Source: Candidatus Moraniibacteriota bacterium
GTDB taxonomy: Bacteria > Patescibacteriota > Minisyncoccia > Moranbacterales > UBA1568
Length of the DNA stretch: 64,000 nt
NCBI GenBank assembly: GCA_049287005.1
Contig: JBAQEZ010000003.1
Span: 465,084-529,083 of the forward strand
Direction: 5' to 3'
Below the pieces are notes generated by a model that was given only the letters and a program-made list of their open reading frames with translations, searched no databases and was not told the DNA's origin. Below, piece by piece: positions 8,232 through 55,661 of this stretch (position 1 is the stretch's first letter; each line of letters opens with the position of its first letter). Position numbers and translations under genes: made by a program.

Positions 8232-10283
8232 ATGGCACATCACGATCAACATGATATCACTTTTTTCGCCAAGACGAACTTCCGTAATAAGGAAAGGGTG
8301 TTCGGCATCAAGACGGACGATCGGCGTCGGCATATGTACGTCATCGGGAAGACGGGTATGGGCAAGACGAATCTGCTGGAGAATCTGGCGATACAGGATA
8401 TTCAGAAGGGGCATGGCATCGCGTTTATCGATCCTCACGGCGATACGGCGGAAAAATTGATCAAAGCCATTCCTTCCAATCGCATCAATGACGTCATTTA
8501 TCTGAATCCGTCTGATCAGGAGTTTCCAATCGCGTTCAATGTGATGGAAAAAGTCGATCCGGAATACCGGCATCTGGTTGCCTCTGGCCTGGTCGGCGTC
8601 TTCAAGAAAATTTGGGCGGATTCCTGGGGGCCGCGTCTCGAATATATTTTGCGTAATGCTATTCTGGCCTTGCTGGAATATCCGGGGAGTACGCTTCTCG
8701 GCGTCACGCGCATTCTGGTCGACAAATCCTATCGTGCTCGCGTGGTAGAGAAGATCACCGACCCGGTGGTACGCAGCTTTTGGGTAGACGAATTTTCGCA
8801 GTGGAACGATCGCGTGTTGCAGGAAGTGATTTCACCGATTCAGAACAAAGTCGGGCAGTTTCTTTCCAGTTCCCTGATCAGAAACATCGTGGGTCAAACA
8901 GTCTCGTCATTCAATATCCGTGAAGCGATGGATAGCCAGAAGATTCTTATTATCAATCTTTCCAAGGGACGGATCGGTGAGGATAACGGAGCGCTCCTCG
9001 GAGCGATGATGATCACCAAGATCCAGTTGGCCGCGATGGGACGCGTGGATATTCCCGAAGAAGATCGCAAGGACTTCTATCTGTATGTCGATGAATTTCA
9101 GAATTTCGCGACAGAATCATTTGCGAATATTCTTTCCGAAGCGCGCAAATACCACCTCAATCTCATTCTTGCCAATCAGTACGTGACGCAGATCGATGAG
9201 ACGGTACGGGATGCTATCTTCGGCAACGCCGGCTCCCTCATTTCTTTTCGTGTCGGCGCGATGGATGCGGAATTCTTGGAGAAAGAATTCGAACCGGTCT
9301 TCATGATGAACGATATCATCAATCTGCCGAAATATCAGATTTATCTGAAATTGATGATCGATGGTATCGCCGGGGATGCGTTTTCTGCGACGACGCTGCC
9401 GCCGATCAAACTTGAAGACGCCGGCAATGAGGCGAAAATCATCCAAAGTTCACGAGAACGGTATTCTTCAGGGAGAGCGGAAGTGGAAGACAAGATTCGC
9501 CGTTGGAGCGGAATGCTGACAGCGGAAGAGCGGCAGGCGATTGTTGATGAGCAGAAAACCGTCCCTCGTTCAGTTTCGGCGGCAGTGTCGGCACCAGCGC
9601 CAGCAGCGAAACAGCCGCCAAAAGATACTCCGTACCATGAGAAAAGTAAAAGCGTGCCAACGAATATCCGTACCGTGCGCCCGCAGACGCCGCCAGCCTC
9701 GGACAAGCTGTCGGCAAAAAATACGGAAGAACCGCTGAAACAGGATGATTTCAAACCGGCGCTCGCTCCCAAACGGGCACCCTTTGCTTCTTTGGCTGAC
9801 TTGGAACCTCAAGCCGTATCACTCGTAGGAGCATCGGTGGAGATCCCTCGACCAGTGACGGTATCCTCAGAACAAGATGTCGTTTCAGCGGCGTCAGAAA
9901 TGCCGGTCATACCGGAAAAGAAATTGTATCCGGCGCACTGCGCGAGTTGCGGGGCGGACATCGAAGTGCCATTCGTGCCGGACGGCAAACGCCCGACTTT
10001 CTGCAAGGATTGTTTGCGGGATTACCAGCGCTCGGTTGCCAAAGCGCGCAACGAGATAGGAACGAAGGGGAGTCCTCTCGAAACGGTACCTGCCACTCCT
10101 CCACCTACGCCGCACGCGCGCGTGGCACATCTCAAAACCTATACCTCCAGTGAGGCGCCGATGTCGCTTGCTCAGATGGGGCATATCGGACCGAAGAAAT
10201 TCAAATCGCTCCATCATCGTCCAGCTGTCAATCTGAGCGAGGTACGCGCTCTCATAGATGCCAGGAGAAAAGCGGAAGAATAA
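8232..10283 (+). CDS. Coupling-protein-like P-loop ATPase (VirD4/TraD/TrwB-like, FtsK-HerA superfamily) with a C-terminal zinc ribbon
   Basis: No N-terminal TM. Walker A is YVIGKTGMGKTN and a FIDPHGD motif follows 25 aa later. Walker B is LYVDEFQNF, then LILANQYVTQID. A Pro/Ala/Ser-rich linker leads to CASCGADIEVPFVPDGKRPTFCKDC (CxxC-x17-CxxC). Confidence 0.7.
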   Translation: MAHHDQHDITFFAKTNFRNKERVFGIKTDDRRRHMYVIGKTGMGKTNLLENLAIQDIQKGHGIAFIDPHGDTAEKLIKAIPSNRINDVIYLNPSDQEFPIAFNVMEKVDPEYRHLVASGLVGVFKKIWADSWGPRLEYILRNAILALLEYPGSTLLGVTRILVDKSYRARVVEKITDPVVRSFWVDEFSQWNDRVLQEVISPIQNKVGQFLSSSLIRNIVGQTVSSFNIREAMDSQKILIINLSKGRIGEDNGALLGAMMITKIQLAAMGRVDIPEEDRKDFYLYVDEFQNFATESFANILSEARKYHLNLILANQYVTQIDETVRDAIFGNAGSLISFRVGAMDAEFLEKEFEPVFMMNDIINLPKYQIYLKLMIDGIAGDAFSATTLPPIKLEDAGNEAKIIQSSRERYSSGRAEVEDKIRRWSGMLTAEERQAIVDEQKTVPRSVSAAVSAPAPAAKQPPKDTPYHEKSKSVPTNIRTVRPQTPPASDKLSAKNTEEPLKQDDFKPALAPKRAPFASLADLEPQAVSLVGASVEIPRPVTVSSEQDVVSAASEMPVIPEKKLYPAHCASCGADIEVPFVPDGKRPTFCKDCLRDYQRSVAKARNEIGTKGSPLETVPATPPPTPHARVAHLKTYTSSEAPMSLAQMGHIGPKKFKSLHHRPAVNLSEVRALIDARRKAEE

Positions 10284-23714: not shown

Positions 23715-24140
23715 TCAGACTTCCTCGTCGAAGAGAATTTTCCAAAAGAGAAAGCCTACGAGGAGAAAGGTAGCGATGATGAGAGGGATAAGAAGCGGAG
23801 GGAAGTTGAAGAGCGAGATCGCAAGGATGCCGATGGTCCAGAGTAATCCGAGCCAAACGAGCGGATTTTTTTTCTGTATTTTCCAATCGAAATTGAGATC
23901 CAGGACGTGTCCCAAGAAAACCAGGACGAAGGAGAAAGACAAAAGGACAAAGAAAAATTTGGTGAGACTCAGGTGCGCGGTTACGAATGTCGGGAGGAGT
24001 ATCTCTATTGTGAACAGCGAGGCGAAAGCAAGGTAGCCGATGAAGAGCATTTCAGTCAGGAGCGCATAGCAAACAGTCAGCCCCCCGCTTGCTTTCAGAC
24101 GGATTAGTTGTTCTGTCAGATACTCGGTTGGGTTTTTCAT
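23715..24140 (-). CDS. Hypothetical membrane protein
   Basis: 141 aa with four predicted TM helices and no motif. Confidence 0.45.
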   Translation of the reverse strand: MKNPTEYLTEQLIRLKASGGLTVCYALLTEMLFIGYLAFASLFTIEILLPTFVTAHLSLTKFFFVLLSFSFVLVFLGHVLDLNFDWKIQKKNPLVWLGLLWTIGILAISLFNFPPLLIPLIIATFLLVGFLFWKILFDEEV

Positions 24141-24148: not shown

Positions 24149-25324
24149 TTATTGACTGATACCGAAGCGCGAGAGGAGGCGCTGTTTAATCTGCGAGAGT
24201 ATCAAAAGCATGTTGTGTTTGCTTTTTTCTGTTTCGAACGAAACTTGGAGTGCGTTGATATCGATATCCGTATCGTTATTTCCGAGTGTTATTTCGAAAT
24301 CATTACCGACACCGGAAGGGAGTGAAACGATCGGTGTTTGACAGGAAAATGTCTGTCCGAAAAATCCCGGCTTGAGAATGCAGCTGACCCGTTCTTCGCT
24401 GGCAACGGATGAGACGATGATAGGAGCTTGCCGCTTGCTGATGAATTCGCGGTAGTTGTCGTCGATGAGCGGACGTTTGGAATTATTTTCCACCAGGTAG
24501 TAGGTATTGGTGTCGCGATCGAAGAGCAGTGTTCCATCGGGATGCTGAGCCCCCAGGAGAAATATACGGCCTCTTTTATAGATACCGATTTCCTCTTCAC
24601 TGGCCGGCCGGACGTCTTCGAATCTGTAGCCGAGGGCGAGGAGGATGTCAGCGCTTCCGATGGGACGCATTTCGGTATTGCTCATGATGAGGAACACACC
24701 GTCGGCGAAAGACACCATCGATCCCACACGATAGCCGATCCAGTTTTCGGATATAGGGTAGTCAGCTAGGAAATCCTTGCTCTCTGGGATGGCGAAGGAA
24801 TCCGGATACCGCGACAAGTAGGCGTTGTCGCTGACAAAGGGGTAGAGGCTGCCGTCTCGGAGCGCATAATAGACAGTATCGACTTTGTAGAGCGATTCTG
24901 CGGGGAAGCCTGTGATAGGCCGACCGGTGGGCAGTAAGAAGCTCCGGTAGGAACGTCGCAGGGAAACATTGAGAGTGTTGGGGCGTGTGGATTTCTTTTC
25001 CAGCGTGAGAGAAATCAGCGCTTGAGAAAATTCTCCCGTGACACTGGCGGTAGCGATGAGCATTCCGTCTTTCCCGATTTTGCCGTTCGTACGAGGGGTG
25101 TTGTCCGTGGCATGCGGATCCAGCAGCGTGTTGCTGCTGGAATCAGGCGTGCGGAAGTTGAAAGAGAAGAAAAGCGTGGGAAACAGTATGCGTAAGGCAA
25201 AAACAATAGTGCTGGCAATCACGATTGCATACAAAAACGCGCGTGCTATCTGGTAGTAGCGCTGAAAATGATGAGGGATGAGAATAGGAGATTGAAACAT
25301 CTTAGTAGATTTGGAATAAATCAT
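24149..25324 (-). CDS. Hypothetical membrane-anchored extracytoplasmic protein
   Basis: 391 aa with an N-terminal signal anchor, rich in Ser, Thr and Asn. It overlaps the start of the upstream GT-C gene by 23 nt, so they are probably an operon. Confidence 0.5.
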   Translation of the reverse strand: MIYSKSTKMFQSPILIPHHFQRYYQIARAFLYAIVIASTIVFALRILFPTLFFSFNFRTPDSSSNTLLDPHATDNTPRTNGKIGKDGMLIATASVTGEFSQALISLTLEKKSTRPNTLNVSLRRSYRSFLLPTGRPITGFPAESLYKVDTVYYALRDGSLYPFVSDNAYLSRYPDSFAIPESKDFLADYPISENWIGYRVGSMVSFADGVFLIMSNTEMRPIGSADILLALGYRFEDVRPASEEEIGIYKRGRIFLLGAQHPDGTLLFDRDTNTYYLVENNSKRPLIDDNYREFISKRQAPIIVSSVASEERVSCILKPGFFGQTFSCQTPIVSLPSGVGNDFEITLGNNDTDIDINALQVSFETEKSKHNMLLILSQIKQRLLSRFGISQ

Positions 25325-27104
25325 TACGTGTCTCCTTGAGGACTTTTTCCGGCAGATGGGGAGTCTTACTCAGGTTATTTTCGAGAGAAGTACTTTCAAG
25401 TTGGATACTGGAAAACGTGACCGTTTTTTTGAACACGAGGCGATCGCCAAACACGGAGACATAGCGCGCCTGATCACCGTCTGGCACGAGGAGATAGGTA
25501 TGCGTGAAAGGAGTGAGATTTATCCGTGCCAGATCATCTGGGTTGAAGAAATACGCCATATTTTTTCCGGACAAATATTGGGCTGGGCCGGTGAGCATAG
25601 CGAAGCCATCGCCGGTAGCGTTCCGGTCGACCAAAACGAGATCGGTATCAGAAAATTCTTGACTGAAAGCGGCAATCTGCTTATCCAGTCCCTGATTTTC
25701 CGCAAACGGCAATCCGTAGCTGAAGGCGGGGTACTCGAGAGCGATCAGGCCGAGAAAGATCATACTGACAAAAAAGAGCCGCTTGCCTTGTGGCATCTCG
25801 ATCGGAAACATCTTCTCTTTGGCAAAGAGGAGTGCTATGCCTACCACAGCCGAAAACAACAGTGCAGGGAACAGAGAGAAGAGATAGCGCCGGAGCATCC
25901 ACGGATGATCGAGTGAGATATTGGGATCGAAGAGGTAGACAAACGTAGGCAGAGCCACCAAGGCTGGCAAAAACGCTTTCAGGCGCTTTTCTTTGATAAA
26001 AATAAGTATTCCAAACACACCGAAAGCGAACAGCGCGAGCAGGCCGTAGAGGAAAAAAACCGAGCCCAGCGTAAAGGGACCGCCGGTACTGGCGAGGTCG
26101 CCGGTGACGCTGCCGGAACCCGATTGACGGAGAAATTTCTCGAGTGCCTTGCCGATCATTTTGTAATAGGGGAGGTTGATAAAAAAATCACGCAAAAAAA
26201 TGAAAGTGAAGAGTATCCCCGGGAGGACGATGCTTTTCCATGGATAGGTTGTCCAGATATGTCGGGTCGGCTTGCTCACGAACAGCACCATGACAGCGAG
26301 AGCAAGAAAGGCAAATCCCTCTATGCGCGTGAAGGCGAACAATCCTCCCGAGAGGAGTATGCCGGCGTAAGAGATGAACTTTCCTTCTTGGAGGAAAAGA
26401 ATGAGATTCCACACCAGAAAGACGAAAAGAAAGAGGGCGAGATTTTCGCTCAAAGTGACTTTCGCGAACCAGGTGGGGAGAAAAGAGAAGATGGCGAGCG
26501 CTAGTCCGGCAGAGGCGTAAAAAGGATGGACGAAGACGCGGAGGAGGGCGTAGAGTGTCGTTAGAAAAAGAAAGAGGAGGATGCTGTTACCGATCACCAG
26601 GCCGTGCACGCCGAAAAGAGAAACGAAGGAAGCAAGCCATGCCGTGTAACCGAGAGGAAATTGAGTAATCAGATCGCCTGTCTTGGTATAGGCAAAACCG
26701 GGAAAATTCAGAGCCGTGCCTTCGCCGTAGATCTGGAAAAAAATTTCACTGGCTGCGGTAGAAAAAGCGAGGTGTCCATTGTGCGCCAAGCGCGTCGCGG
26801 CCTCCGCTATGGATCCTTGGTCGCGTCCGGAAAAAAGGGTGGGAACAGACAATGAGCCGATCAGCACAGACATAAAGAGCGAAATAAGAACCGCTATTTT
26901 GAAATCAGGCGTGGCACGGAGGATCACTTTTGTGCTGATAATGAGAACAATGGCCAAAACCAGGGCCGCGCCGGAAACAATCAGCGGGAACAGAAAGAGG
27001 TCGCTCAGAGCCAGCAGAAAAACAAACCAGCCGAAGAGAATGAAAGAGAGTCCGAACAGGACGAACAAAGTGTCAGTTTTTTCAATTGGAGAGAAGAATT
27101 TCAT
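25302..27104 (-). CDS. GT-C fold glycosyltransferase (GT39/ArnT/PMT-like), polytopic membrane protein
   Basis: About 600 aa from the internal Met (MKFFSPIEK at 27104). It has more than ten TM helices, an acidic first-loop motif SGRDQGSIAEAA and a large C-terminal extracytoplasmic domain. The ORF-track start at 27293 overlaps the divergent clp-like gene and is unlikely to be real. Confidence 0.55.
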   Translation of the reverse strand: MKFFSPIEKTDTLFVLFGLSFILFGWFVFLLALSDLFLFPLIVSGAALVLAIVLIISTKVILRATPDFKIAVLISLFMSVLIGSLSVPTLFSGRDQGSIAEAATRLAHNGHLAFSTAASEIFFQIYGEGTALNFPGFAYTKTGDLITQFPLGYTAWLASFVSLFGVHGLVIGNSILLFLFLTTLYALLRVFVHPFYASAGLALAIFSFLPTWFAKVTLSENLALFLFVFLVWNLILFLQEGKFISYAGILLSGGLFAFTRIEGFAFLALAVMVLFVSKPTRHIWTTYPWKSIVLPGILFTFIFLRDFFINLPYYKMIGKALEKFLRQSGSGSVTGDLASTGGPFTLGSVFFLYGLLALFAFGVFGILIFIKEKRLKAFLPALVALPTFVYLFDPNISLDHPWMLRRYLFSLFPALLFSAVVGIALLFAKEKMFPIEMPQGKRLFFVSMIFLGLIALEYPAFSYGLPFAENQGLDKQIAAFSQEFSDTDLVLVDRNATGDGFAMLTGPAQYLSGKNMAYFFNPDDLARINLTPFTHTYLLVPDGDQARYVSVFGDRLVFKKTVTFSSIQLESTSLENNLSKTPHLPEKVLKETRNDLFQIY

Positions 27105-27210
27105 ATCGGTTTCATTATACCTCAAAGGCGTATATTTCTTCAATGAGTCGTTGGATGAATAAAAATCATGACACCTCCCGGAGCAGGCGGGCTCCTCGCT
27201 GCCATGTGGT

Positions 27211-27239
27211 TTGCCAAGCGTCTTGAATGTGTTTACAAT
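27211..27239 (+). promoter_or_regulatory. Sigma70-type promoter for the membrane Clp-like gene
   Basis: TTGCCA at 27211..27216, a 17-nt spacer, then TACAAT at 27234..27239, 47 nt upstream of the ATG at 27286. Confidence 0.45.
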
Positions 27240-27285: not shown

Positions 27286-29736
27286 ATGAGCAAGCATTTT
27301 TTTTCTTGGTATTACGGACAAGGGCTTCGTGATGCGTTTCTTTTGTTCGGGAATCTTGTGCGATTTGTTCTCTATCGCTTTTATATCGGCGGATTACTGC
27401 GCACGCTTTTTTCCCCGTGGAGGCGCGATGTCTCTTTTCGTACATGGAAGGGTCTGCATCCACTTCTTTTCGCCAAAACGTTGCTGAATAATCTGATCTC
27501 TCGTTTTCTGGGAATGGTGCTGCGGCTGGCGATGCTTGTCATAGGGTGTGTGGTGGCATCGCTTATGGTCGTCGTCGTAACTCTCATGGCGCTGGCGTAT
27601 GTCGGATCTCCGCTGTTTATTGTGGTGGGTGCCGTCATGCTGCCTTTTTCTCAGCTCATCGGAGCCATGATCTTGCTTTTTGGGATACTGGGTTGCAGCG
27701 GGGTATGGCTCGGCTATGCCATCCGGAAAAGAGAACAGCTGGAAACATTCGACGTGCAAGTATTGGAACGGAAGAAATTTTTCCATCGTATCCTTTGGCG
27801 TTTGGGTCTCCGGCGTAAGGCTTTGCGCAAAGAGATATTTGCAGACACGGGAACGTTCCTGCAATTCCTGGCAACGCTTGCTCTCGATGAGGAAACGTAC
27901 CGGCGAGCAGTGACGATAGAGTGTCACGCGGACGAAGCGCGCGATCATAAAAGCCGTTTCTGGCTATGGGAAAATCTACATAAGGTTAAGCCTATCGGAA
28001 AAGACTGGCACTATGCCTATACGCCGCACCTGGATCATTATTGCGTCGATCTTGCGGCACATGATCCGACTGAATATGGTCGGGCGGTGCTGATCGGACG
28101 GCACGATGAAATGGCGGTGGTTACGGTGGTTCTGCAACGTCCGACACAGAATAGCGTTATTCTGGTGGGCGAACCGGGCATCGGCAGGAAGACATTCGTC
28201 CATCATTTCGCCAGCCTGATTCGTGAAAACGCATTCGGATCGCAATATTTGGATGAGGCGCGTGTCCTGCTTTTCGACCTGAGCCGAGCGATGAGCGATT
28301 GTATAGGCCGTGGCGAAGACGTGGAGCGGGCTTTGCGTTTGCTGTTCAATGAAGCCGCCTATGCCGGCAATGTCATCCTAGTCATAGAAAACATCGACCA
28401 ATACCTCAATGGCGATCAGGAGCGGCCCAATTTGGCTCCTCTGCTGAGCGAATTCCTGGAGTGGCCGAATTTCCGTGTCATCGCTACGGCACCGACGAAT
28501 CAATATCACGAACTGACCAAGCAAAATGAACAAGTATTGAAATTTTTCGAAGTGATCTATCTGCGAGAAACGAATATCGAGGAGACCTTCCAGGTGCTCC
28601 TGCAGAAATTCGAACGTCTCGAGCGCAAGGAGGTAGTATTTACCATCAAGGGTCTGGATGCGATCGTGGCTTCAGCAGAGAGGTATAATTGGGAGACACC
28701 TTTCCCCGAGCGAGCCATCGATCTGGCACAGGAAGTGCTTCTCTTCTGGCAGGGGACAAACGAAGATTTTATCACGCCGGCAACAGTGAATGGTTTCATG
28801 GCTCTCAGAACGGGCATGCCGATCGGCGTGCTCGGAGCGGCAGAGAAGGAGAAGCTGCTGAAGCTGGAAACGTTGCTGCATGAGCGCGTCGTGGGTCAGA
28901 ATGAGGCGGTGGAACAAGTGGCTGAGGCGATGCGTAAGGCGCGCGCCGGGTTCGGTGATGAGAAGCGTCCGCTGGGCAGCTTCATCTTTTTCGGATCAAC
29001 GGGCGTGGGGAAAACGGAGACGGCCAAGGCTCTTGCTGAAAGTTATTTTGGCAGCGAGGACGACATGATCCGTCTCGATATGAGCGAATATCAGACAGAG
29101 GAAGCCGTCGATCGTTTGATCGGTTCCCGCGAAATGCGCGTCCAAGGCAGGTTGACGAGTTTGGCCAAGGAACACCCGTTCTCTATTCTGCTGTTGGATG
29201 AAATCGAGAAGGCGAATCCGAAGGCTCTTGACCTCTTCTTGCAGATTTTGGACGAAGGGTATGTGACGGACAGCGATGGCGAGAAGATAAATTTTCGCAA
29301 TATGATCATTATTGCGACATCCAACGCCGGCGCCGCGCTCATCAAGCAGGCCGTGGAAGAGGGGGTCAGCACGGCAGACATAAGAAAGCAAATAATGGAT
29401 TTCATCGTGGCACATGACATTTTCCGTCTGGAGTTTTTGAATCGTTTCGATAGCATGGTTTTTTTCGAGCCGCTGCAGGCGGATGAGCTGCTTCAGGTGG
29501 CTTTGCTCAAGCTGAAAAAATTCGCGTTGCGTCTCAAACAAGAGAAGAATATCGTTATCAGCTTCGCTCCGGATGTCGCGCAGAAAATAGTCGAACGGGG
29601 ATATGAGCCGGTATTCGGCGCTCGCTCACTCAATCGTTATATCGAAGACGCCATTGAAGACATGATCGTCAAAAAAATTATCGCGGGAGAGATCGCTTCC
29701 GGCGGATCGCTTCTCATTTCCGGCGACGAATTATGA
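27286..29736 (+). CDS. Membrane-anchored Clp/Hsp100-family double-AAA+ ATPase; N-terminal TM domain replaces the Clp_N domain and the first AAA module looks degenerate
   Basis: Residues 1-200 carry two or three TM helices. D1 reads AVLIGRHDEM..VILVGEPGIGRKTF, where Walker A has an inserted Arg, and its Walker B reads VILVIENID. D2 is canonical: ERVVGQNEAVEQV, GSTGVGKTETAKALA, ILLLDEIEKA and a sensor-2 GARSL. There is no M-domain and no IGF loop. Confidence 0.8.
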   Translation: MSKHFFSWYYGQGLRDAFLLFGNLVRFVLYRFYIGGLLRTLFSPWRRDVSFRTWKGLHPLLFAKTLLNNLISRFLGMVLRLAMLVIGCVVASLMVVVVTLMALAYVGSPLFIVVGAVMLPFSQLIGAMILLFGILGCSGVWLGYAIRKREQLETFDVQVLERKKFFHRILWRLGLRRKALRKEIFADTGTFLQFLATLALDEETYRRAVTIECHADEARDHKSRFWLWENLHKVKPIGKDWHYAYTPHLDHYCVDLAAHDPTEYGRAVLIGRHDEMAVVTVVLQRPTQNSVILVGEPGIGRKTFVHHFASLIRENAFGSQYLDEARVLLFDLSRAMSDCIGRGEDVERALRLLFNEAAYAGNVILVIENIDQYLNGDQERPNLAPLLSEFLEWPNFRVIATAPTNQYHELTKQNEQVLKFFEVIYLRETNIEETFQVLLQKFERLERKEVVFTIKGLDAIVASAERYNWETPFPERAIDLAQEVLLFWQGTNEDFITPATVNGFMALRTGMPIGVLGAAEKEKLLKLETLLHERVVGQNEAVEQVAEAMRKARAGFGDEKRPLGSFIFFGSTGVGKTETAKALAESYFGSEDDMIRLDMSEYQTEEAVDRLIGSREMRVQGRLTSLAKEHPFSILLLDEIEKANPKALDLFLQILDEGYVTDSDGEKINFRNMIIIATSNAGAALIKQAVEEGVSTADIRKQIMDFIVAHDIFRLEFLNRFDSMVFFEPLQADELLQVALLKLKKFALRLKQEKNIVISFAPDVAQKIVERGYEPVFGARSLNRYIEDAIEDMIVKKIIAGEIASGGSLLISGDEL

Positions 29737-30926
29737 ATCTTTTTCTCATCAAAATAGGGAAAGCCGTTCATGTGCTCAAGCGCGAGGGTTTCGTGCGTGG
29801 CGGCAAACGCGTGGCGCTGGCATTTCTGGCGCTCTTTCGCCGTGTGAAGCCCGGGGATATCCTTTTCATCACTGGCGGCGTCGGGGATAGCGCGCGCTAT
29901 CGGACCGCGCATGTGGCGGAGGAGCTGACGTCGCACGGCCTGGCTTGTGCCGTCACCGTCCAGGACAATCCCTTCCTCGTGTCTTACGCCGACAGGTTCT
30001 CTGTCTTTGTTTTTCATCGCGTACTGCATACGGAAAAAGTCGCTCGGCTTATCGAGCGGATCAAATCATCGGGCAAAGAGATCATTTTTGAGACCGATGA
30101 TTTGGTATATGATCCGCAGTGGTTGTCCTCTATGGATGGCTATGATCGTATGAACGCTTTCGAGAAAAAATTGTACGCAACTGGTCTGGGCAAAGAGATC
30201 GTCAATGATCCCTACGTGAAAACCTGTACGACGACCACGACATTTCTTGCCGATAAATTGCGAGAAAAAGGCAAGCACGTGTTTGTCGTACGCAACAAGC
30301 TTTCTCAGCATGATATCGCGTCCGCAGAGGAGATTCTGCGGACGGCAGAAAAAGAATCCCCCCTCGTCAGGATTGCCTATCTGAGCGGCACGCCGAGTCA
30401 CAATAAGGATTTCGCGACCATTACGGACGCACTGTTTACGCTGTTCGGGAAGTATCCGCAGATGCGCTTGGTATTGGCCGGGCCGCTTGATACCGAAGAC
30501 AAGCTGAAACCATTCCAAAATCGCATCGAACGGGTGCCGTTTCTTCCGCGGAAGGAATATTTCGCGACCGTGGCGAGCATGGATATCAACGTGGCGCCGC
30601 TTGAGATCGGCAATCCGTTTTGCGAAGCCAAGTCGGAACTGAAGTGGTTCGAGGCGGGGCTGGTCGCCGTGCCGACTGTGGCTTCTGCGACTGGGACATT
30701 CCAAGAGGCTATCAGAGACGGTATCGATGGGTATGTGGCCGCGACCACGGAAGAGTGGATCGCGAAGCTTTCGGGGCTTATCGAAGACGGCACGCTTCGA
30801 GGAAAAATCGGAGCCAAAGCGAGGGAAAAGATTTTGCGACACTATGCTGCCGGCAAGGCGGATAATCAAGAGTATTATGATTATTTGCGCAGGAGGATCA
30901 GTGAGCGTGAGAATGTAACCATATAA
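29733..30926 (+). CDS. Putative GT-B fold glycosyltransferase
   Basis: The C-terminal half (LAGPLD...E.K.ELKWFEAGLVAVPTVASATGTFQEAIRDGIDGY) resembles GT1/GT4 donor-binding domains. It overlaps the clp-like stop by 4 nt. Confidence 0.55.
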   Translation: MNLFLIKIGKAVHVLKREGFVRGGKRVALAFLALFRRVKPGDILFITGGVGDSARYRTAHVAEELTSHGLACAVTVQDNPFLVSYADRFSVFVFHRVLHTEKVARLIERIKSSGKEIIFETDDLVYDPQWLSSMDGYDRMNAFEKKLYATGLGKEIVNDPYVKTCTTTTTFLADKLREKGKHVFVVRNKLSQHDIASAEEILRTAEKESPLVRIAYLSGTPSHNKDFATITDALFTLFGKYPQMRLVLAGPLDTEDKLKPFQNRIERVPFLPRKEYFATVASMDINVAPLEIGNPFCEAKSELKWFEAGLVAVPTVASATGTFQEAIRDGIDGYVAATTEEWIAKLSGLIEDGTLRGKIGAKAREKILRHYAAGKADNQEYYDYLRRRISERENVTI

Positions 30927-30936: not shown

Positions 30937-31893
30937 ATGAAAATATTGATTACCGGAGGAGCGGGGTTTATCGGGTCGGCCACAGCCAAGAAGCTGATGG
31001 AGCGCGGCGATCAGGTAGTACTGATCGACAACTTCAATGATTATTACGATCCCAAGCTGAAGGAAGCTCGGATCAAGATTTTTCTCAAAGAGTGCAGGGG
31101 CAAATTCAAGCTGTACCGAGGCGATATCCGTGATGTGGATTTCCTCGAAAAAGTTTTCAAAAAAGAAAGACCGGACAAGGTCATTCATCTGGCGGCGATG
31201 GCCGGGGTGCGTTATGCTATCGAGCACCCGCTGTTGTACGTGGACGTCAACGTTTTGGGGACGACCTACATGCTCGATATCGCGGTGAAATATAAAATCA
31301 AGAATTTCATCTATGCCTCTTCCTCTTCCGTGTATGGAAAGAACAAGAAGCTGCCGTTTTCCGAAAGTGATTCCGTCGACACGCCGATTTCTCCGTACGC
31401 GGCGAGCAAGAAGGCCACGGAGCTGCTGGCGCATTGTTTCAGTCATATTCATGGGCTCAAGACGACCGGTCTGCGCTTCTTCACGGTGTATGGGCCATGG
31501 GGGCGTCCGGATATGGCGCTCTTCAAATTCGTGAAGCATATCCTCGCCGATGAACCGATCGATGTCTATAATCGGGGGAAAATGAGTCGGAACTTCACCT
31601 ACATCGATGACATCGTTTCCGGCGTCATTACCGTGTTGGATTCCGATCTCCCGTACGGTATAATGAATATCGGCGGAGACAAGGAAGAACAGCTCCTGCG
31701 CTACATCGGCGTGATTGAGGAATGCCTCGGCAAGAAGGCGAAGAAAAATCTGCTTCCGATGCAGCCCGGCGACGTACCGAGTACGGTCGCGGATATCCGG
31801 AAACTCCGCAAGCTCGGTTGGAAACCGACCACGCGCATAGAGCAAGGCATCAAGAATTTCGTGGCATGGTACAAGGGATATTACAAGGTGTAA
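30937..31893 (+). CDS. NAD-dependent nucleotide-sugar epimerase/dehydratase (SDR, WcaG/CapI-like)
   Basis: ILITGGAGFIGS Rossmann motif, catalytic YAASK, and overall extended-SDR layout. Confidence 0.85.
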   Translation: MKILITGGAGFIGSATAKKLMERGDQVVLIDNFNDYYDPKLKEARIKIFLKECRGKFKLYRGDIRDVDFLEKVFKKERPDKVIHLAAMAGVRYAIEHPLLYVDVNVLGTTYMLDIAVKYKIKNFIYASSSSVYGKNKKLPFSESDSVDTPISPYAASKKATELLAHCFSHIHGLKTTGLRFFTVYGPWGRPDMALFKFVKHILADEPIDVYNRGKMSRNFTYIDDIVSGVITVLDSDLPYGIMNIGGDKEEQLLRYIGVIEECLGKKAKKNLLPMQPGDVPSTVADIRKLRKLGWKPTTRIEQGIKNFVAWYKGYYKV

Positions 31894-33064: not shown

Positions 33065-33153
33065 AGGGCGGACGTAGTGAGGATGGGTGCCAGAACCACC
33101 GCGGAAACAATCTTTGTGATGATTTATTGGAAAATATAACGTTTACGACAAAT

Positions 33154-34248
33154 ATGGCGAAAGATTACTATGAAATTCTGGGCGTCGCCAAGAACGCCTC
33201 TGAGGACGAAATCAAGAAGGCTTTTCGCAAGCTAGCGCACCAGCATCACCCAGACAAGGGCGGCGGCGACGAAAAGAAATTCAAAGAGATCAACGAAGCC
33301 TATCAGGTGCTGTCGAAAAAAGACAAGCGCAGCCAGTATGATCAGTTTGGTCAGAATTTTCATGGCAATGGAGGCGGCAGGTCAAGTCAGGGGCAGGGCG
33401 GATTCGGAGGGTCCTCCGGTCGAGGTGGATCGGCTGCGGGCTTTGATTTTTCGGGCACCGGTTTCGAGGACATTTTTTCTGACATGTTCGGCGGAGGCGG
33501 GCGCTCTCGCGGGCAGTCTCGCGTCGGCGCGGATATCGCCGTAGATATAGAAATCACTTTCGCAGAGATGGTGCACGGAGTCAAGAAGGATATCCGCTTG
33601 CGCAAGCTCTCGCGTTGCGATGTCTGCGGCGGCACGGGCGGGAAGCCTCATTCCAAAGAAGACACCTGTTCCGAATGCCAAGGCAGCGGGCAAATTCGGC
33701 GCACGGTACAGACTATTTTTGGTGCGTTCGCGCAGGAAGCGGTGTGTGAGCGTTGCCATGGACGTGGAAAAACGTACAAAGAAAAATGTACGACATGTCA
33801 TGGCGACGGACGGACGCAGAAAGAAGAACACATTTCCATAGAGATCCCAGGCGGTATCCGTGATGAGCAGACGCTTTCTGTCAGCGGACGCGGAGCGGCC
33901 GGGGAGGATGGCGCTCCGTCCGGTGACCTCTTCGTCAATGTGCATGTCCGTCCTCATGCGTCGCTCAAGCGGCGCGGGGATGATATCGTATCCGATCTGC
34001 AGATCACTTTTGCGCAGGCGGCGCTGGGAGGCAAAGTGAATGTCGGGACCATCGAGGGCGATGTCACGATGAAGATTCCTGCCGGCACTCAGCCGGGAGA
34101 GGTCTTTCGCGTCCGCGGTAAGGGCGTACCGCATCTCGGCCATTACGGCCGCGGCGATCATCTGGTGACCATTTCTTTGTTCGTGCCGAAAAAGCTTTCG
34201 CGTGAGGAAAAAGACTTGATTGAAAAGCTTGGGAAGCTGGAAAAATAG
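33154..34248 (+). CDS. dnaJ: Molecular chaperone DnaJ
   Basis: Starts [11 protein letters not shown], has an HPD motif, a Gly-rich region and four CxxCxGxG zinc-finger repeats. The upstream ORF-track start at 33127 is probably not used. Confidence 0.9.
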
Positions 34249-46889: not shown

Positions 46890-48617
46890 ATGAATCAAAT
46901 CGCAAAAAGGCGCTTTCGTTTTTCGGGAGTGCTCTTCCTTGGCCTAGTAGTTGGCATTATTTCCTATCCCCAGGCGGTAAAATTTATTCCGCCGCTTTTT
47001 CAGGCTGTCCAAAAACTCAAAGTCAATGAAGGTCTGGATCTTCAAGGTGGTATCGCTTTGGAATACAATGCTGATGTGTCACAGCTTCCCAGCGCCAAAG
47101 TAGGTGAGGCACTCTCTGCGGCGGAAGCCGTGATCGAACGGCGCGTGAATGCGTTCGGTGTCGGCGAACCATTGGTACAATCGTTACAATCAGGGACGGA
47201 GCATCATATTATCGTGGAATTGCCTGGCGTCAAAGACATTGAGCAGGCCAAAAAGATGATCAAGGAAACGCCTTTTCTCGAATTTCGTGAACAGGTCGCG
47301 CCGGACGCGGATATATTCAAACAATTCGATGCTTTGAATAACAGTACGAAAGAAAAGGCACAGACCGTTTTAGTGCGAGCGAAACAGGGTGAGGATTTCA
47401 GCGTTTTAGCCAAAGAATTTTCTCAGGATCCTGGCTCCAAAGATCAGGGTGGCGATTTGGATTTTGTGAAAAAGGGCACCTTCGTACCGGAATTTGATGC
47501 CGTACTCTTTGATCCGAACTTCAAATCAGGCGAGATCTATCCGACCTTGATCGAGAGCCAATTCGGGTGGCACATCATCAAGAAGATAGAAGAGCGAGGT
47601 GAAGGAGACACTCTCGAAGTGCATGCCGCGCACATTCTTTTCAGTAAACGTTCTATCGAGCAGTATCCGGATTTGCAATGGGTGGCGACAGGTCTGTCGG
47701 GAAAAAACCTCAAGAGCGCCTCCGTTGATTATCAGAGTCAAGGCGTCGGATCGCCGCAGGTAGCGCTCCAATTCGATAGCGAAGGGACTCAGCTTTTCGC
47801 GGACATTACCAAACGTAACATTGGGAAGGGATTGGCAATCGTGCTTGATGGTCTTCCGATCACCGATACGAATGGTGACGGAATCATCGATAAATCGGAT
47901 CCGCCGTATGCCCCGACGATTCAGGGAGAGATACCGGGAGGTCAGGCTGTTATTACGGGGAATTATACGATGCAGCAAGCGAATGATTTGGTAAAACGCC
48001 TCAATGAGGGCGCGTTGCCGGTGCCGATTACGCTGGTTGGTCAGCAGAGCGTGGATGCGTCACTGGGACAAAGCGCGTTGGAGCAGAGCCTTTTTGCCGG
48101 ACTGGTGGGCTTGGGTGCGGTCGCTCTTTTCATGATTCTGTACTATCGCTTCCTGGGTCTGATCGCTGTTTTCGCCTTGCTTCTCTACACGGCGATGTTG
48201 CTGGCCATTTTCAAGCTCTCGAACTTTACGCCCTTCGCGATCACAGTGACGCTTTCCGGTATCGCTGGTTTCATCCTGTCCATCGGTATCGCTGTGGATG
48301 CCAACGTGCTGATTTTCGAACGGACGCGTGAAGAGCTATCGTATGGTAAGGGTGTCGTGAAATCCATCAAAGAAGGATTCCGGCGTGCGTGGCCGAGTAT
48401 CCGCGATGGCCATGTATCGACCTTGATTACGACATTCATTCTGATCGCTTCTGGTACCGGATTCGTGAAGGGTTTCGCCATTATTCTCGCTCTGGGTGTT
48501 TTGCTTTCCTTGTTCACGGCTGTCGTGCTCGTCCGAGTGACGATGGATTTCTTGATCGGAGATTGGATGGAACGTCACCCGAAGCTCTTGGTCTCACCCA
48601 AAAAACCTCTTGAATAA
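46890..48617 (+). CDS. secD: Protein translocase subunit SecD with a parvulin-type PPIase domain inserted in the periplasmic P1 region
   Basis: SecD core motifs LGLDLQGG, IVLDG and the C-terminal six-TM bundle are present. Residues about 140-250 read EDFSVLAKEFSQDPGSKDQGGDLDFVKKGTFVPEFDAVLFD...GEIYPTLIESQFGWHIIKK, collinear with PpiC (ADFGKLAKKHS.CPSGK.GGDLG.F..G.MVP.FD.VVF....TQFGYHIIKV). Confidence 0.85.
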   Translation: MNQIAKRRFRFSGVLFLGLVVGIISYPQAVKFIPPLFQAVQKLKVNEGLDLQGGIALEYNADVSQLPSAKVGEALSAAEAVIERRVNAFGVGEPLVQSLQSGTEHHIIVELPGVKDIEQAKKMIKETPFLEFREQVAPDADIFKQFDALNNSTKEKAQTVLVRAKQGEDFSVLAKEFSQDPGSKDQGGDLDFVKKGTFVPEFDAVLFDPNFKSGEIYPTLIESQFGWHIIKKIEERGEGDTLEVHAAHILFSKRSIEQYPDLQWVATGLSGKNLKSASVDYQSQGVGSPQVALQFDSEGTQLFADITKRNIGKGLAIVLDGLPITDTNGDGIIDKSDPPYAPTIQGEIPGGQAVITGNYTMQQANDLVKRLNEGALPVPITLVGQQSVDASLGQSALEQSLFAGLVGLGAVALFMILYYRFLGLIAVFALLLYTAMLLAIFKLSNFTPFAITVTLSGIAGFILSIGIAVDANVLIFERTREELSYGKGVVKSIKEGFRRAWPSIRDGHVSTLITTFILIASGTGFVKGFAIILALGVLLSLFTAVVLVRVTMDFLIGDWMERHPKLLVSPKKPLE

Positions 48618-52230: not shown

Positions 52231-53307
52231 TTGTTAAGAGTTTTTATGCTATCAGAACGCATCACGCAAATCGAAACAGTAGGCACAGCATCGCTCGCAG
52301 CGGTGCGCATCATTGCCGAATTGGAAGCCTGGGAAGTGAAGTATCTCGGCCGCAAGAGCGAGCTGAATGATATTTTGAAGAGCCTGAAAGATCTGACACC
52401 GGAAGAAAAACGGGTCGTCGGTCCGCTCGCCAACGCCGTGAAACAATCCTTATTGCAAGCTTTTGAGAAGACCAAGGAAACGCTTCTGGAAAAGAGTATC
52501 GATTGGGAAGCGGAACGCGTGGATGTGACGGCGCCAGGCAAGTCGTCGCCACGCGGGCACCTTCATCCGATCACCCGCATAGAACACGAGATCGAGGATA
52601 TTTTTTCCGAAATGGGATTTGCTGTAGCGGACGGCCCCGAGGTAGAGACCGAACATTACAATTTCGACGCTCTCAACGTGCCGGCCGATCATCCGGCGCG
52701 CGATATGCAGGATACATTTTGGCTTGCTTCGACTCCGTCTCAGGAAGGCGGGAGCGAGTCATCCGACGTTCGGGAGAAATATCTCCCGCGTACGCAGACT
52801 TCTCCGGTGCAGATGCGTTATATGGAACAGCATACGCCACCGCTCCGTATCGTGGCGCCGGGACGGGTGTTTCGCAATGAAGCGACCGATGCCTCGCACG
52901 AGCATACGTTTCATCAGTTCGAATGTCTGATGGTCGGCGACGATGTGACGGTAGCCAATTTCAACTTCGTGGCAGAAACTTTTTTCAGCCGCTTTTTCGG
53001 TAAGAAAATAGATATCCGGCTGCGGCCGAGCTTTTTCCCGTTTACGGAACCGTCATTTGAATTCGATATTTCCTGCACGCTCTGTGATGGCCAGGGGTGT
53101 CCCGTCTGCAAACAGTCAGGTTGGCTCGAACTGGGCGGTGCTGGGATGGTGAATCAGAAAGTATTTGAAGCGGCCGGCTATCCGCGAGGCAAGTACCAGG
53201 GGTTCGCGTGGGGCTTCGGGACGACGCGACTGGCTATGATGAAGTACAAAATTACCGATATCCGTCTCATCATGAGCGGCGACCTCCGTTTTATACGACA
53301 GTTCTGA
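52231..53307 (+). CDS. pheS: Phenylalanine--tRNA ligase alpha subunit
   Basis: Class II motifs (FRNE, GLGTTRLAM-like GFGTTRLAMM) and the Phe-tRNA synthetase alpha-core layout. Confidence 0.9.
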   Translation: MLRVFMLSERITQIETVGTASLAAVRIIAELEAWEVKYLGRKSELNDILKSLKDLTPEEKRVVGPLANAVKQSLLQAFEKTKETLLEKSIDWEAERVDVTAPGKSSPRGHLHPITRIEHEIEDIFSEMGFAVADGPEVETEHYNFDALNVPADHPARDMQDTFWLASTPSQEGGSESSDVREKYLPRTQTSPVQMRYMEQHTPPLRIVAPGRVFRNEATDASHEHTFHQFECLMVGDDVTVANFNFVAETFFSRFFGKKIDIRLRPSFFPFTEPSFEFDISCTLCDGQGCPVCKQSGWLELGGAGMVNQKVFEAAGYPRGKYQGFAWGFGTTRLAMMKYKITDIRLIMSGDLRFIRQF

Positions 53308-53312
53308 TCCCT

Positions 53313-55661
53313 ATGAAATACAGTTACAACAAACTGGTCGAATTATCAGGCACGAAAAAAACCCCGGAGGAACTGGCGCAACTGTTTTTGATGCGTGCTT
53401 TCGAGGTGGAATCCGTTGAGCCGTTTGCGCAGCATTTGGAAAACGTCGTGATCGGATCGGTGCTGGAAGCAGAAAAACATCCGAATGCCGATAAGCTCAA
53501 AGTCACCAGGGTAGATACGGGCGATAGGGTTCGCCAGATCGTGTGTGGCGCCCCCAATGTCGCCGCAGGACAGAAGGTGGCCGTCGCTCTGCTGGGCGCG
53601 AAACTGCCGGGAAATATCACTATCAAAGAAGCGGAAATTCGCGGGGAGGCATCAGAGGGGATGATCTGTTCAGAAAAGGAGCTCGGGTTCGGCGAAGGGC
53701 AGGACGGTATTCTGGTCCTGCCGGATGATGCGCCCATTGGAATGCCATTCGCAGAGTATGCCGGCCTCGCGGACTTTCTCCTGGATCTGAAGATTCTTCC
53801 GGATCGTGGTGCGGATGCATTGTCATATCGGGGACTGGCCCGCGAAATCGCGGCTCTCGAAAGACGCCAGCTCTCTTTCGTACAGGAAAAACTCAGGAAA
53901 TATCCAGCCAATCCCATTGGTATAACGATCGTATCCGAAAAATGTTCTCGCTATGCTGGGTTTTGGTTCGAGCATGTGCGGCCGGGAACAGCGCCGCTTC
54001 CGCTGAGAGCGTTTCTTCTTTTGAACGGACTCCGTTCCATCAGTGTTCCGGTAGACATTACCAATTATTTTCTCTTGGAATACGGCCAGCCGATGCACGC
54101 TTTCGATGCGGATACGCTCGAGGGACACATCATCATTCGCCAGGCAGCGGCAGGCGAAACGCTGCAACTCTTGGGTGGCGAAACGATCACGCTGGATACG
54201 GAAGATCTCGTCATCGCCGATGAGCAGAAGGTACTCGCTCTCGCCGGCGTGATGGGGGGTATGCGCTCGGCGGTGACTAACAAAACGACGCGGGTCTTTC
54301 TTGAGATCGCTATTTTCGATGCGATCTCCATCAGACGGACACGCGTGCGGCACAATCTCGCTACGGATGCGGCCTATCGGTATGAACGCGGGCTGGATGC
54401 TCATGCGGCGGGAGACACTTTTGCCCGCGCGGCGGAATTGTTCGCCAGCTACTCTGGGGCAGACGTAGCGGGTTTTATGGACGTCTATCCGGCACCGATC
54501 GAACCGAAAACGATTACGTTGCCGATAAGTCTGCCGGAGAAGATGCTCGGCGTTCCGGTGGCCAAGGAATTTATCGGGAAGTGTCTCGAAGCGTTCGGTT
54601 GCGACGTGAGAGAAAAAAATGAAACGTTTATCGTGACCGTTCCGACGAGACGCAAAGATCTCGAAGATGAGTGGAACCTGGTAGAGGAGATCGGACGGAC
54701 ATTCGGATACGAAAATATTCCTGTGACGGCACCAACATTCGCGCTGGCTCTCTCAGAAGGTAATCCGGCGAAACGCTTCGAACGGGACGTGAAAGAATAT
54801 CTTTCGGCCGCCGGTTTCGATGAAATGATGACGTATTCATTCTACGGCGTACACGATGCGGAGAAATACTCTCTGGATCCGCAAGAGCATCTGACACTCT
54901 CCAACCCGCTCAGTCCGGAACTGGCGCTTATGCGACCATCGGTATTGCTGACAGCCCTGCTCAAGGCCAAGGACAACCTCCGTTATTTCGATTCTTTCCG
55001 CTATTTCGAATTCGGCAGCGCGTATGTGCGTGACGAGGAAACGTTCGTGAACGAAGGAAAACAGCTGGCACTAGTACTAGTTGATGCCGTGAGTGACGAT
55101 CTCTTCGCGCTCCTGAAAGGAAAAGTAGAAGCGTTGCTGGATTTTTCCCATCAGAAAAATATCACTTTTGCGGCGATAGCCGAGCAGGAGAGTATCTGGC
55201 ATCCCAGCCGTTCGGCACATATTCTTGCGGACGGAAACATCATCGGTACGATCGGGGAGATTTCCCCGCGGATTCTTTCGAAATTCGGAATGAAACGACG
55301 CATCGTAGCCGCTCTCTTTTCCGCGGAAACCTTGGCCGCGTCATATGCATCGACGACGACGATGCAACCGCTGCCGAAATTTCCTTTTGCCGTCCGTGAT
55401 ATTTCATTGACTTTCCCATCGGTCAATGGACGCAGTATCAATGTGGCGGAAGCAGAAGCGCTGCTCGATGAAGCAGGCGCGCCGCTCCTCAAACGGCACG
55501 AACTGTTCGATGTCTATGCACAGGGCGAAGAGAAAAGCCTGGCATTCCATCTCTCGTTCGGAGCGGATGACCGGACCCTTTCCGGCGAGGAGATGGATAG
55601 GGTATTCGATCGGATTGTGGCTCTGGCGAAAGAGCGATTTGAGGCTCGATTGAAGGATTAA
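53313..55661 (+). CDS. pheT: Phenylalanine--tRNA ligase beta subunit
   Basis: Starts MKYSYNKLVEL at the ATG at 53313. It has tRNA-binding, B3/B4, B5 and FDX-ACB domains in pheT order. The ORF-track start at 53208 overlaps pheS. Confidence 0.9.
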   Translation: MKYSYNKLVELSGTKKTPEELAQLFLMRAFEVESVEPFAQHLENVVIGSVLEAEKHPNADKLKVTRVDTGDRVRQIVCGAPNVAAGQKVAVALLGAKLPGNITIKEAEIRGEASEGMICSEKELGFGEGQDGILVLPDDAPIGMPFAEYAGLADFLLDLKILPDRGADALSYRGLAREIAALERRQLSFVQEKLRKYPANPIGITIVSEKCSRYAGFWFEHVRPGTAPLPLRAFLLLNGLRSISVPVDITNYFLLEYGQPMHAFDADTLEGHIIIRQAAAGETLQLLGGETITLDTEDLVIADEQKVLALAGVMGGMRSAVTNKTTRVFLEIAIFDAISIRRTRVRHNLATDAAYRYERGLDAHAAGDTFARAAELFASYSGADVAGFMDVYPAPIEPKTITLPISLPEKMLGVPVAKEFIGKCLEAFGCDVREKNETFIVTVPTRRKDLEDEWNLVEEIGRTFGYENIPVTAPTFALALSEGNPAKRFERDVKEYLSAAGFDEMMTYSFYGVHDAEKYSLDPQEHLTLSNPLSPELALMRPSVLLTALLKAKDNLRYFDSFRYFEFGSAYVRDEETFVNEGKQLALVLVDAVSDDLFALLKGKVEALLDFSHQKNITFAAIAEQESIWHPSRSAHILADGNIIGTIGEISPRILSKFGMKRRIVAALFSAETLAASYASTTTMQPLPKFPFAVRDISLTFPSVNGRSINVAEAEALLDEAGAPLLKRHELFDVYAQGEEKSLAFHLSFGADDRTLSGEEMDRVFDRIVALAKERFEARLKD

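Follow-up and report, generated by a model that had tools for sequence, protein, structure and literature searches.

What might a Clp-type ATPase be doing at the membrane of a candidate phyla radiation (CPR) bacterium? Hsp100/Clp machines are, in the textbook account, soluble, pore-loop-driven unfoldases. A 64,000-nucleotide stretch of a Candidatus Moraniibacteriota genome (contig JBAQEZ010000003.1, positions 465,084 to 529,083; hereafter the window, numbered from its first letter) encodes a protein, here called TM-Clp (transmembrane Clp), in which a membrane-spanning N-terminal region precedes two AAA+ modules of the Clp type, D1 and D2. We found that TM-Clp derives from the class-I Clp/Hsp100 ATPases, is integral to the membrane, and is specific to CPR/Patescibacteria; although its Hsp100 origin is clear, it lacks several of the features that define Hsp100 function. 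New here are the loss of the pore aromatics from both rings, an N-terminal module (N-module) that is separable and spread across the CPR, and a conserved pairing with a gene encoding a glycosyltransferase-like protein of the GT-C fold. The gene and its parts are as follows (aa, amino acids).

27286..29736, plus strand: TM-Clp gene, 816 aa, membrane-anchored Clp/Hsp100-like double AAA+ ATPase (open reading frame [ORF], Pfam and PDB matches, AlphaFold2 [AF2] model)
27286..27510, plus strand: cytoplasmic or interfacial part of the N-module (aa 1-75), with invariant or near-invariant columns; the same module as in stand-alone proteins of ~130 aa
27511..27723, plus strand: predicted transmembrane (TM) hairpin (aa 76-146), from Kyte-Doolittle hydropathy, AF2 helices and charge pattern
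27724..28020, plus strand: helical linker (aa 147-245) ending in a pre-D1 motif, from conservation
28021..28755, plus strand: D1, degenerate AAA+ module (aa 246-490), from the alignment to ClpB nucleotide-binding domain 1 (NBD1; 58-65 bits) and motif tables
28168..28194, plus strand: D1 Walker A, GEPGIGRKT (aa 295-303), from alignment and motif tables
28375..28392, plus strand: D1 Walker B, ILVIEN (aa 364-369), from motif tables
28876..29460, plus strand: D2 large subdomain, canonical AAA_2 ATPase (aa 531-725), from Pfam (E = 1e-43) and invariant columns
29122..29148, plus strand: D2 pore loop, GSREMRVQG (aa 613-621), from alignments and entropy
29473..29712, plus strand: D2 small subdomain, ClpB_D2-small (aa 730-809), with sensor-2 GARS at 778-781, from Pfam (E = 1.6e-18)

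The reading frame runs from ATG 27286 to TGA 29734-29736, exactly the position and 816-aa size given by the original prediction, which had been made from the letters of the window alone. TM-Clp is 100% identical to an NCBI Candidatus Moraniibacteriota protein, whose 792-aa model starts 24 codons further downstream and so leaves out 27286..27357. We consider ATG 27286 the better start because residues 4-24 (including F5, W8, Y9, Y10, and G13) are kept family-wide. At least 118 full-length homologs of ~816 aa (43-75% identity, 100% coverage) exist, and scanning GTDB species, each represented by a single genome, yielded 80 species-level genomic loci, nearly all in Moranbacteria with a few in Paceibacteria, Parcubacteria, and Portnoybacteria. 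Databases give relatives nonspecific or incorrect names ("AAA family ATPase," "ClpC," "ClpA"), and full-text literature searches turned up no account of a Clp protein anchored in the membrane of CPR bacteria. Many of the metagenome-assembled genomes (MAGs) bearing these loci (L014, L015, L017, L020, and others) are titled "uncultured Bdellovibrionales," probably a taxonomic mislabel by the submitter.

TM-Clp has the class-I Clp/Hsp100 layout of tandem AAA+ modules collinear with ClpA/ClpB. In Pfam, D2 matches AAA_2 at 561-723 (E = 1e-43) and ClpB_D2-small at 730-809 (E = 1.6e-18), and D1 gives only a weak AAA_16 signal. Against PDB sequences, phmmer aligned residues 249-484 to ClpB NBD1 (58-65 bits; independent E values of ~1e-15 to 1e-17) and residues 493-809 to ClpB NBD2 (255-265 bits). 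Its alignment to ClpA is a single collinear stretch (TM-Clp 268-814 versus ClpA 187-736), and because this stretch is uninterrupted, TM-Clp has no insertion the size of an M-domain; D1 ends at ~484, D2 begins at ~493, and the AF2 model contains no long coiled coil. That model, built from 72 homologs, has a mean predicted local distance difference test score (pLDDT) of 85 and a predicted template modeling score (pTM) of 0.72, and its D1-D2 body can be superposed on protomers of ClpC/ClpB at a target-normalized TM-score of ~0.74 over ~576 columns. The original prediction of two collinear Clp-type modules lacking an M-domain is thus borne out by Pfam, by phmmer, and by the structure comparison that it had called for. 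Scores fall 3-4 fold below the cutoff of every NCBIfam Clp equivalog: 377 versus 1,232 bits for ClpB (TIGR03346), 342 versus 993 for ClpA (TIGR02639), and 293 versus 885 for ClpV. No Pfam match to Peptidase_M41 was found in TM-Clp, which has two Clp-type modules rather than the single classic AAA module of FtsH.

The Clp_N domain, which the prediction held to be replaced by about 200 aa of other sequence, is indeed missing by every sequence method applied. Pfam gave no match to PF02861 in TM-Clp, its linker, or 10 relatives from the superfamily (E≤1-10); a profile search of PDB sequences found none; and hhalign assigned 2% probability in comparison with the E. coli ClpB N-domain sequence. The linkers of TM-Clp and of the split forms described below looked Clp_N-like, and a cryptic Clp_N there was rejected on the same three negative searches. 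By sequence, then, no Clp_N appears to be detectable anywhere in the N-module superfamily.

In place of Clp_N, TM-Clp carries the N-module and a hairpin. The first 75 residues comprise a helix (5-31) bearing the conserved F5, W8, Y9, Y10, and G13, a conserved loop at 40-59 (TLFSPW(K/R)RD...W(R)G.HP), and a juxtamembrane helix with N69, R73, G76, and R80. Residues 69-147 are strongly hydrophobic (Kyte-Doolittle values up to 2.8), and AF2 places helices at 59-106, 108-118, and 123-146. The hairpin divides into TM1 (~76-103), an uncharged turn or short helix (104-122), and TM2 (~123-146). Family-wide, the N-terminal 72 residues have a net charge of +4.8; Lys plus Arg averages 0.2 in the 19-residue turn versus 8 on each flank, and the segment after TM2 is basic again. 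This charge distribution fits two passes with both ends in the cytoplasm (N-in/C-in), in agreement with what an ATPase requires. Of the two or three TM helices first proposed, we therefore predict two, not three, an arrangement that would expose almost nothing outside the cell. The linker that follows ends in the pre-D1 motif RFW.WENL.K..PIGK.W.YAYTP.LD.Y.

D1 appears to have lost its catalytic function throughout the family. We tabulated motif states over the 118 close homologs and 71 species representatives. Walker A reads GEPGVGKT in ClpB/ClpA versus GEPGIGRKT in TM-Clp; its family consensus is G-x-P-G-I-G-K-[KR]-[TS], in which Lys is kept in >90% of members, the position of the Mg-ligand Thr/Ser is Lys or Arg family-wide, and the Arg of this TM-Clp (R301) is rare. 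The original prediction had taken this P-loop for a one-residue insertion; it is better read as substitutions (Lys to Arg and Thr to Lys), since its HMMER alignment to ClpB is ungapped and the helix in the AF2 model begins at residue 301. The same prediction was right that Walker B has IEN rather than DE: the ClpB/ClpA pair DE corresponds to E-N (VIENID) in TM-Clp, the first residue of the pair is Glu or Asp in the family, and the catalytic position holds N, H, D, Q, G, or R but never Glu in any of the 118 and 71 homologs. The Arg finger is RR in ClpB/ClpA, KF in TM-Clp, and mostly K[YF] in the family. TM-Clp thus lacks the motifs of a competent D1 (GK[TS], DE, and Arg finger). With its catalytic Glu and Arg finger gone and its Mg-ligand Thr replaced, we consider D1 a non-hydrolyzing ring family-wide, a predicted pseudo-ATPase that keeps its fold and, in most relatives, its P-loop Lys.

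D2, by contrast with D1, keeps every ATPase motif and is predicted to be an active motor; the motif tables support the earlier view of a dead D1 beside a canonical D2. Walker A (GPTGVGKTE in ClpB/ClpA; GSTGVGKTE in TM-Clp, with GSTGVGKT at 570-577) and Walker B (LLLDEIEKA, with LLLDE at 635-639) are conserved in the family; sensor-1 (TSN, 678-680), the Arg finger R720 (FLNRFD), and sensor-2 (GARS) are invariant or nearly so. R720 itself is invariant, and since this finger acts in trans, hydrolysis by D2 would depend on formation of an oligomer.

The pore loops of both modules depart from the Clp pattern. At the D1 position where ClpB/ClpA have the Tyr of KYR, TM-Clp has Gly and the family is variable. 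The D2 pore loop, LIGAPPGYVGYEEGG in ClpB versus LIGSREMRVQG in TM-Clp, is nonaromatic and 4 residues shorter than the ClpB segment GAPPGYVGYEEGG, which holds the GYVGY loop. The six-residue tip, flanked by the invariant G613/S614 and G621, is hypervariable: its entropy is 2.4 bits in the 118 close homologs and 2.6 bits in 72 aligned sequences (the query and the 71 species representatives), against means of 0.97 and 1.17 bits for the D2 large subdomain, and in both sets it takes 8th place for variability among 160 six-residue windows, although the rest of D2 is highly conserved. An aromatic residue of any kind occurs in the tip of 12 of the 118 and 6 of the 72 sequences, and 12 and 15, respectively, have none of F, W, Y, M, L, I, or V (for example, QEDGSS and SVSGEE). 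Conserved aromatic pore loops (KYR in D1 and GYVG in D2) are therefore not a feature of TM-Clp. Canonical threading is doubtful because the D2 loop is shorter and variable and the pore aromatics are missing in both rings. In line with the prediction that no IGF-type ClpP-docking loop is visible, an IG[FL]-type tripeptide between D2 sensor-1 and the Arg finger was found in only 1 of the 118 and 1 of the 72 members.

A positive control for these losses comes from a Moranbacteria MAG (L019), which carries its own TM-Clp gene and, ~9 kb upstream of it, part of a conventional Clp gene.

L019:3-755, plus strand: 3' end of a canonical ClpC-type gene

LIGSPPGYVGYEEGG, which holds a GYVGY pore loop, is present in this gene together with the ClpP-docking tripeptide LGF; one genome thus contains both a canonical and a membrane-anchored Clp gene. 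Since the ClpC of L019 keeps GYVGY, pore-loop loss is specific to the TM-Clp paralog, and since a related genome has a canonical ClpC-type gene, TM-Clp is not the general Clp of the lineage. TM-Clp is, judging from these genes, an extra, specialized paralog. The search for canonical Clp partners elsewhere that had been recommended at the outset was in this way answered in part, over the window and the flank of one relative, by a ClpC-type gene in that related Moranbacteria genome; no clpP-like ORF was found within the 64-kb window when E. coli ClpP served as the query.

The N-module is not confined to fused proteins. When the N-terminal 252 aa were the query, a word-seeded search for homologs returned 1 match, and an exhaustive HMMER profile of residues 1-245 was used instead; this recovered 1,338 cluster representatives, CPR-wide. 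They fall into three classes: the ~816-aa family, proteins of ~870-897 aa with a longer linker before D1-D2, and many stand-alone proteins of 121-136 aa that consist only of the N-module and its TM hairpin. The motif W.WENL...IGK.W.YAYTP.LD.Y is common to all three (fused, long, and split). On contigs that are long enough, the stand-alone gene lies directly upstream of, or overlaps, a gene for a Clp-like double AAA+ protein.

L090:6001-8842, L091:6001-9010, L092:397-1996, L006, and L009: split two-gene systems

The partner is an 823-aa gene product in L090 and an 872-aa product in L091 (a Candidatus Sungbacteria contig); both ATPases have a TM hairpin of their own, and in both D1 is degenerate, D2 is canonical, and the D2 pore loop is nonaromatic. 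We found no stand-alone N-module gene in the window or in 1.45 Mb of Moranbacteria loci. The pattern of fusion and fission argues that the N-module is a dedicated membrane partner of the ATPase.

The neighbors of TM-Clp suggest what else it might work with. Three genes are transcribed away from it, and two follow it.

25302..27104, minus strand: GT-C-fold integral membrane glycosyltransferase-like protein, 600 aa, divergent from TM-Clp (AF2, Foldseek, synteny)
24149..25324, minus strand: conserved 391-aa protein after the GT-C gene (synteny; no family match)
23715..24140, minus strand: conserved 141-aa polytopic membrane protein, third of the divergent trio (synteny; no family match)
29733..30926, plus strand: GT-B (GT4-type) glycosyltransferase gene (Pfam)
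30937..31893, plus strand: NAD-dependent epimerase gene, after the GT-B gene

The AF2 model of the 600-aa protein (pLDDT, 88; pTM, 0.90) matched only GT-C structures among its top 35 PDB hits in Foldseek (E values down to 1e-5, TM-scores of 0.41-0.52), among them ALG9, STT3/PglB, ArnT, PMT, AftA/AftD, Emb, and DPY19. Residues G93-R94-D95-Q96-G97, in its first outer loop, are invariant; the protein thus shows both the multi-TM fold of GT-C enzymes and their conserved acidic motif in that loop. From sequence, no named glycosyltransferase family could be assigned to it: Pfam gave no match, PDB profiles gave negative or very weak results, and its match to NCBIfam NF047440 is weak (23 bits versus a cutoff of 200), so that the protein was resolved by structure prediction alone. 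The 391-aa and 141-aa proteins always follow the GT-C gene and have no Pfam, NCBIfam, or PDB sequence match; the former has an N-terminal TM segment and a probable extracytoplasmic domain with conserved Cys residues. By tblastn, the 600-aa protein is adjacent and divergent in ~51 of the 62 species-level loci with enough upstream sequence (across 38-67% identity), and the same trio arrangement recurs even where TM-Clp identity is as low as 43-56%. On the other side, the end of TM-Clp and the start of the GT-B gene share 4 bp in this window (stop codon and ATG, ATGA); the GT4 and epimerase genes are kept in most loci, and relatives add GT4 and Wzm/Wzt-type ABC exporter genes. The position between GT-C and GT-B genes noted originally therefore holds, with a linkage conserved within Moranbacteria. 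The divergent GT-C operon together with the downstream GT-B and epimerase genes suggests surface-glycan machinery as the client.

We propose, with about even confidence, that TM-Clp is a D2-powered remodeling or switching device that acts on a membrane-embedded partner or client, in glycan assembly in Moranbacteria. The N-in/C-in hairpin and the N-module would tether a ClpA-like D1-D2 body under the membrane. TM-Clp would form a hexamer whose D1 face and six N-modules lie against the membrane, with 12 TM helices; D1 would be a dead ring and D2 the sole ATP-hydrolyzing one. D2 would then remodel or switch its membrane-embedded partner or client rather than processively thread a polypeptide, and such non-threading action is the more likely of the two because the pore loops of both rings are unconserved. 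Lacking an M-domain, TM-Clp would have no ClpB-type coupling to Hsp70; lacking an IG[FL] loop, it would have no coupling to ClpP; and lacking Clp_N, it would have none to Clp_N adaptors. The N-module would serve as the dedicated membrane partner, encoded by a separate gene elsewhere in the CPR, and the client in Moranbacteria may be the assembly machinery for surface glycans or glycoconjugates; the partner there is probably the GT-C/GT-B glycan machinery. In its most specific form, the proposal is of a non-threading membrane motor, in which D2 hydrolysis on a dead-D1 scaffold drives or gates a membrane process via the N-module and hairpins, a process that in Moranbacteria would be GT-C-dependent assembly of surface glycans or glycoproteins. 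This version is tentative, and in all its particulars we think it quite unlikely.

Several points count against this proposal. The hexamer and its orientation are drawn from homology. At pore-loop position 617, 76 of the 118 close homologs (about two thirds) carry Met or Leu, Tyr or Phe occurs at 620 in a few members, and some of the ~890-aa relatives keep a Phe; there may thus be a weak, aliphatic-based grip and hence some threading. In this particular TM-Clp, the P-loop Lys that most relatives retain in D1 is Arg. Neither the split nor the ~890-aa class shows the GT-C linkage, nor do ~11 of the 62 family loci, and the linkage may reflect lineage-specific gene order, not function. Split and long forms instead sit near genes for ribosomal proteins, pilins, and transporters, and since the linkage is not common to these classes, the core activity of the superfamily must be more general than glycan assembly.

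The grip just described bears most directly on the function first suggested for this gene, a membrane-protein extractase or tethered disaggregase that threads its clients through the central channel with D2 as the single motor, much as Msp1 or FtsH would without the protease. We consider this unlikely, although it is a serious alternative. The membrane tether and the live D2 on which it was built both stand: the N-terminal TM anchor puts the entry face of the ring at the membrane, the D2 ATPase site is fully intact, Met or Leu occupies position 617 in so many close homologs with Phe or Tyr surviving in some relatives, and a dnaJ gene lies 3.4 kb downstream. What is in doubt is the threading motor. 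No aromatic-hydrophobic pore loop is conserved in either ring; the D2 loop is shortened, its tip falls within the most variable 5% of D2, and in 10-21% of members that tip is purely polar or acidic, whereas the ClpC-type gene of a related Moranbacteria genome keeps GYVGY. Nor is there an M-domain for cooperation with Hsp70. The dnaJ gene is probably a matter of local synteny, not a functional link, because it is conserved only in the closest relatives.

Freedom of the pore loops from constraint is equally what one would expect if TM-Clp did no work on polypeptides at all and were a ring-shaped, membrane-anchored NTPase that regulates or scaffolds a polysaccharide-assembly complex, functionally analogous to a Wzc-type co-polymerase, with D2 gating or timing the GT-C/GT-B pathway. 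The conserved divergent GT-C pairing and the GT4 and epimerase genes downstream (often with Wzm/Wzt) fit such a role. Against it, the split and long forms occur in unrelated neighborhoods, and the core function is therefore not glycan-specific; we regard this alternative as distinctly unlikely.

An ordinary housekeeping ClpB, ClpC, or ClpA orthologue with an incidental or mispredicted hydrophobic N-terminus is very improbable and already contradicted. Source annotations do name relatives "ClpC," "ClpA," or "AAA family ATPase," and D2 is 34% identical to the D2 of ClpB/ClpC, but the equivalog scores are far too low, Clp_N, M-domain, and IGF loop are absent, D1 is dead, the pore loops are lost, the TM hairpin occurs in all homologs with a positive-inside charge bias, and a related Moranbacteria genome has a canonical ClpC-type gene as well. 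Finally, a sequencing or assembly artifact that joined a small membrane-protein gene to a Clp gene, which the original prediction had named as something that could undo it, is practically out of the question for this family: the N-module is truly a separate gene upstream of a Clp-like gene in other CPR lineages, but the fused 816-aa frame recurs in >118 independent assemblies and in 80 species-level genomes with both length and linker conserved.

We return to the proposal of a membrane-bound remodeling or switching device and compare TM-Clp with known systems. ClpA and ClpC, the unfoldases that partner ClpP, share its layout (collinear D1-D2, no M-domain, matching large and small D2 subdomains, and a fold TM-score of ~0.74 to ClpC), but they have Clp_N where TM-Clp has a TM hairpin and a novel N-module, and TM-Clp lacks their IG[FL] loop, has a dead D1 and two noncanonical pore loops, and scores below their equivalog cutoffs. 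ClpB/Hsp104 provide the best D2 matches (E of ~1e-94 to Thermus thermophilus ClpB) and likewise have no ClpP loop; TM-Clp differs from them in lacking the coiled-coil M-domain, Clp_N, and the tyrosines of GYVG and KYR, and in being membrane-integral. In NSF, PEX1/PEX6, and p97-type ATPases, one ring binds nucleotide without hydrolyzing it and is structural, and the other ring is the motor. TM-Clp resembles them in having an inactive ring beside a motor ring; these proteins belong to another AAA clade, however, and their active ring keeps substrate-gripping pore loops.

Two further comparisons concern membrane association. FtsH, Msp1 (ATAD1), and Bcs1 similarly use an N-terminal TM anchor to set an AAA ring directly under the membrane, but they are single-ring ATPases of the classic clade with conserved aromatic pore loops and, in FtsH, a protease, none of which TM-Clp has; these family properties are background, in part from PMC7018516. 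Torsins are Clp/Hsp100-related, membrane-associated AAA+ proteins without aromatic pore loops and are thought not to thread (PMC5425593). They share with TM-Clp a relationship to the Hsp100 D2, N-terminal hydrophobic membrane association, and the absence of aromatic pore loops. Torsins, however, are eukaryotic, luminal proteins (endoplasmic reticulum and nuclear envelope) with a single module and no Arg finger of their own, and they need LAP1/LULL1; TM-Clp is bacterial and cytoplasmic and has two modules with an invariant D2 Arg finger, R720.

A CPR-confined, membrane-integral Clp family with one live ring and pore loops freed from selection extends the known range of the Hsp100 scaffold. If the non-threading motor proves true, the Clp ATPases would gain a new functional class, confined to the CPR and with separable membrane and ATPase subunits. 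The retention of TM-Clp in tiny CPR genomes (the TM-Clp contig is ~0.77 Mb), together with a canonical ClpC in a relative, implies that TM-Clp has an important function at the envelope that is particular to the lineage; the envelope is the interface by which epibiotic or symbiotic CPR cells live on their hosts. Both the fusion/fission pair (the ~130-aa module and the ATPase) and the GT-C pairing name concrete, testable partners. Meanwhile, annotation as "ClpC," "ClpA," or "AAA family ATPase" misleads metabolic and proteostasis reconstructions of CPR genomes.

As for transcription, a "good" TTGCCA-17-TACAAT promoter had been predicted upstream of TM-Clp. The site exists, in the 181-bp divergent intergenic region, and a second match faces the GT-C gene.

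27211..27239, plus strand: sigma-70-like promoter candidate, TTGCCA-17-TACAAT
27143..27114, minus strand: second promoter-like match, facing the GT-C gene

Promoter-like sites are no more frequent here than in shuffled sequence (3 found versus 2.3 expected), so TTGCCA-17-TACAAT is a candidate only and is not statistically notable.

Other genes of the window deserve brief mention. The dnaJ gene lies at 33127..34248 (plus strand), on the same strand as TM-Clp. A second ORF of 817 aa (53208..55661), considered as a possible TM-Clp paralog, was ruled out: it encodes PheT. At 58071..61112 (plus strand) is a gene for a 1,013-aa LCAT/PGAP1-like alpha/beta-hydrolase protein; a homologous gene of ~977 aa (L003:14015-15893) adjoins the same glycan/TM-Clp cluster in a distant relative. 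The gene at 8232..10283 (plus strand) encodes a coupling-protein ATPase of 683 aa that is TrwB/VirD4-like and carries a treble-clef zinc finger at its C terminus. At 46890..48617 (plus strand), a 575-aa SecD-like protein has a PPIC-type (parvulin) rotamase domain (~aa 150-235) inserted between SecD_1st and the SecDF P1-head, an unusual fusion of a periplasmic foldase with a Sec motor subunit.

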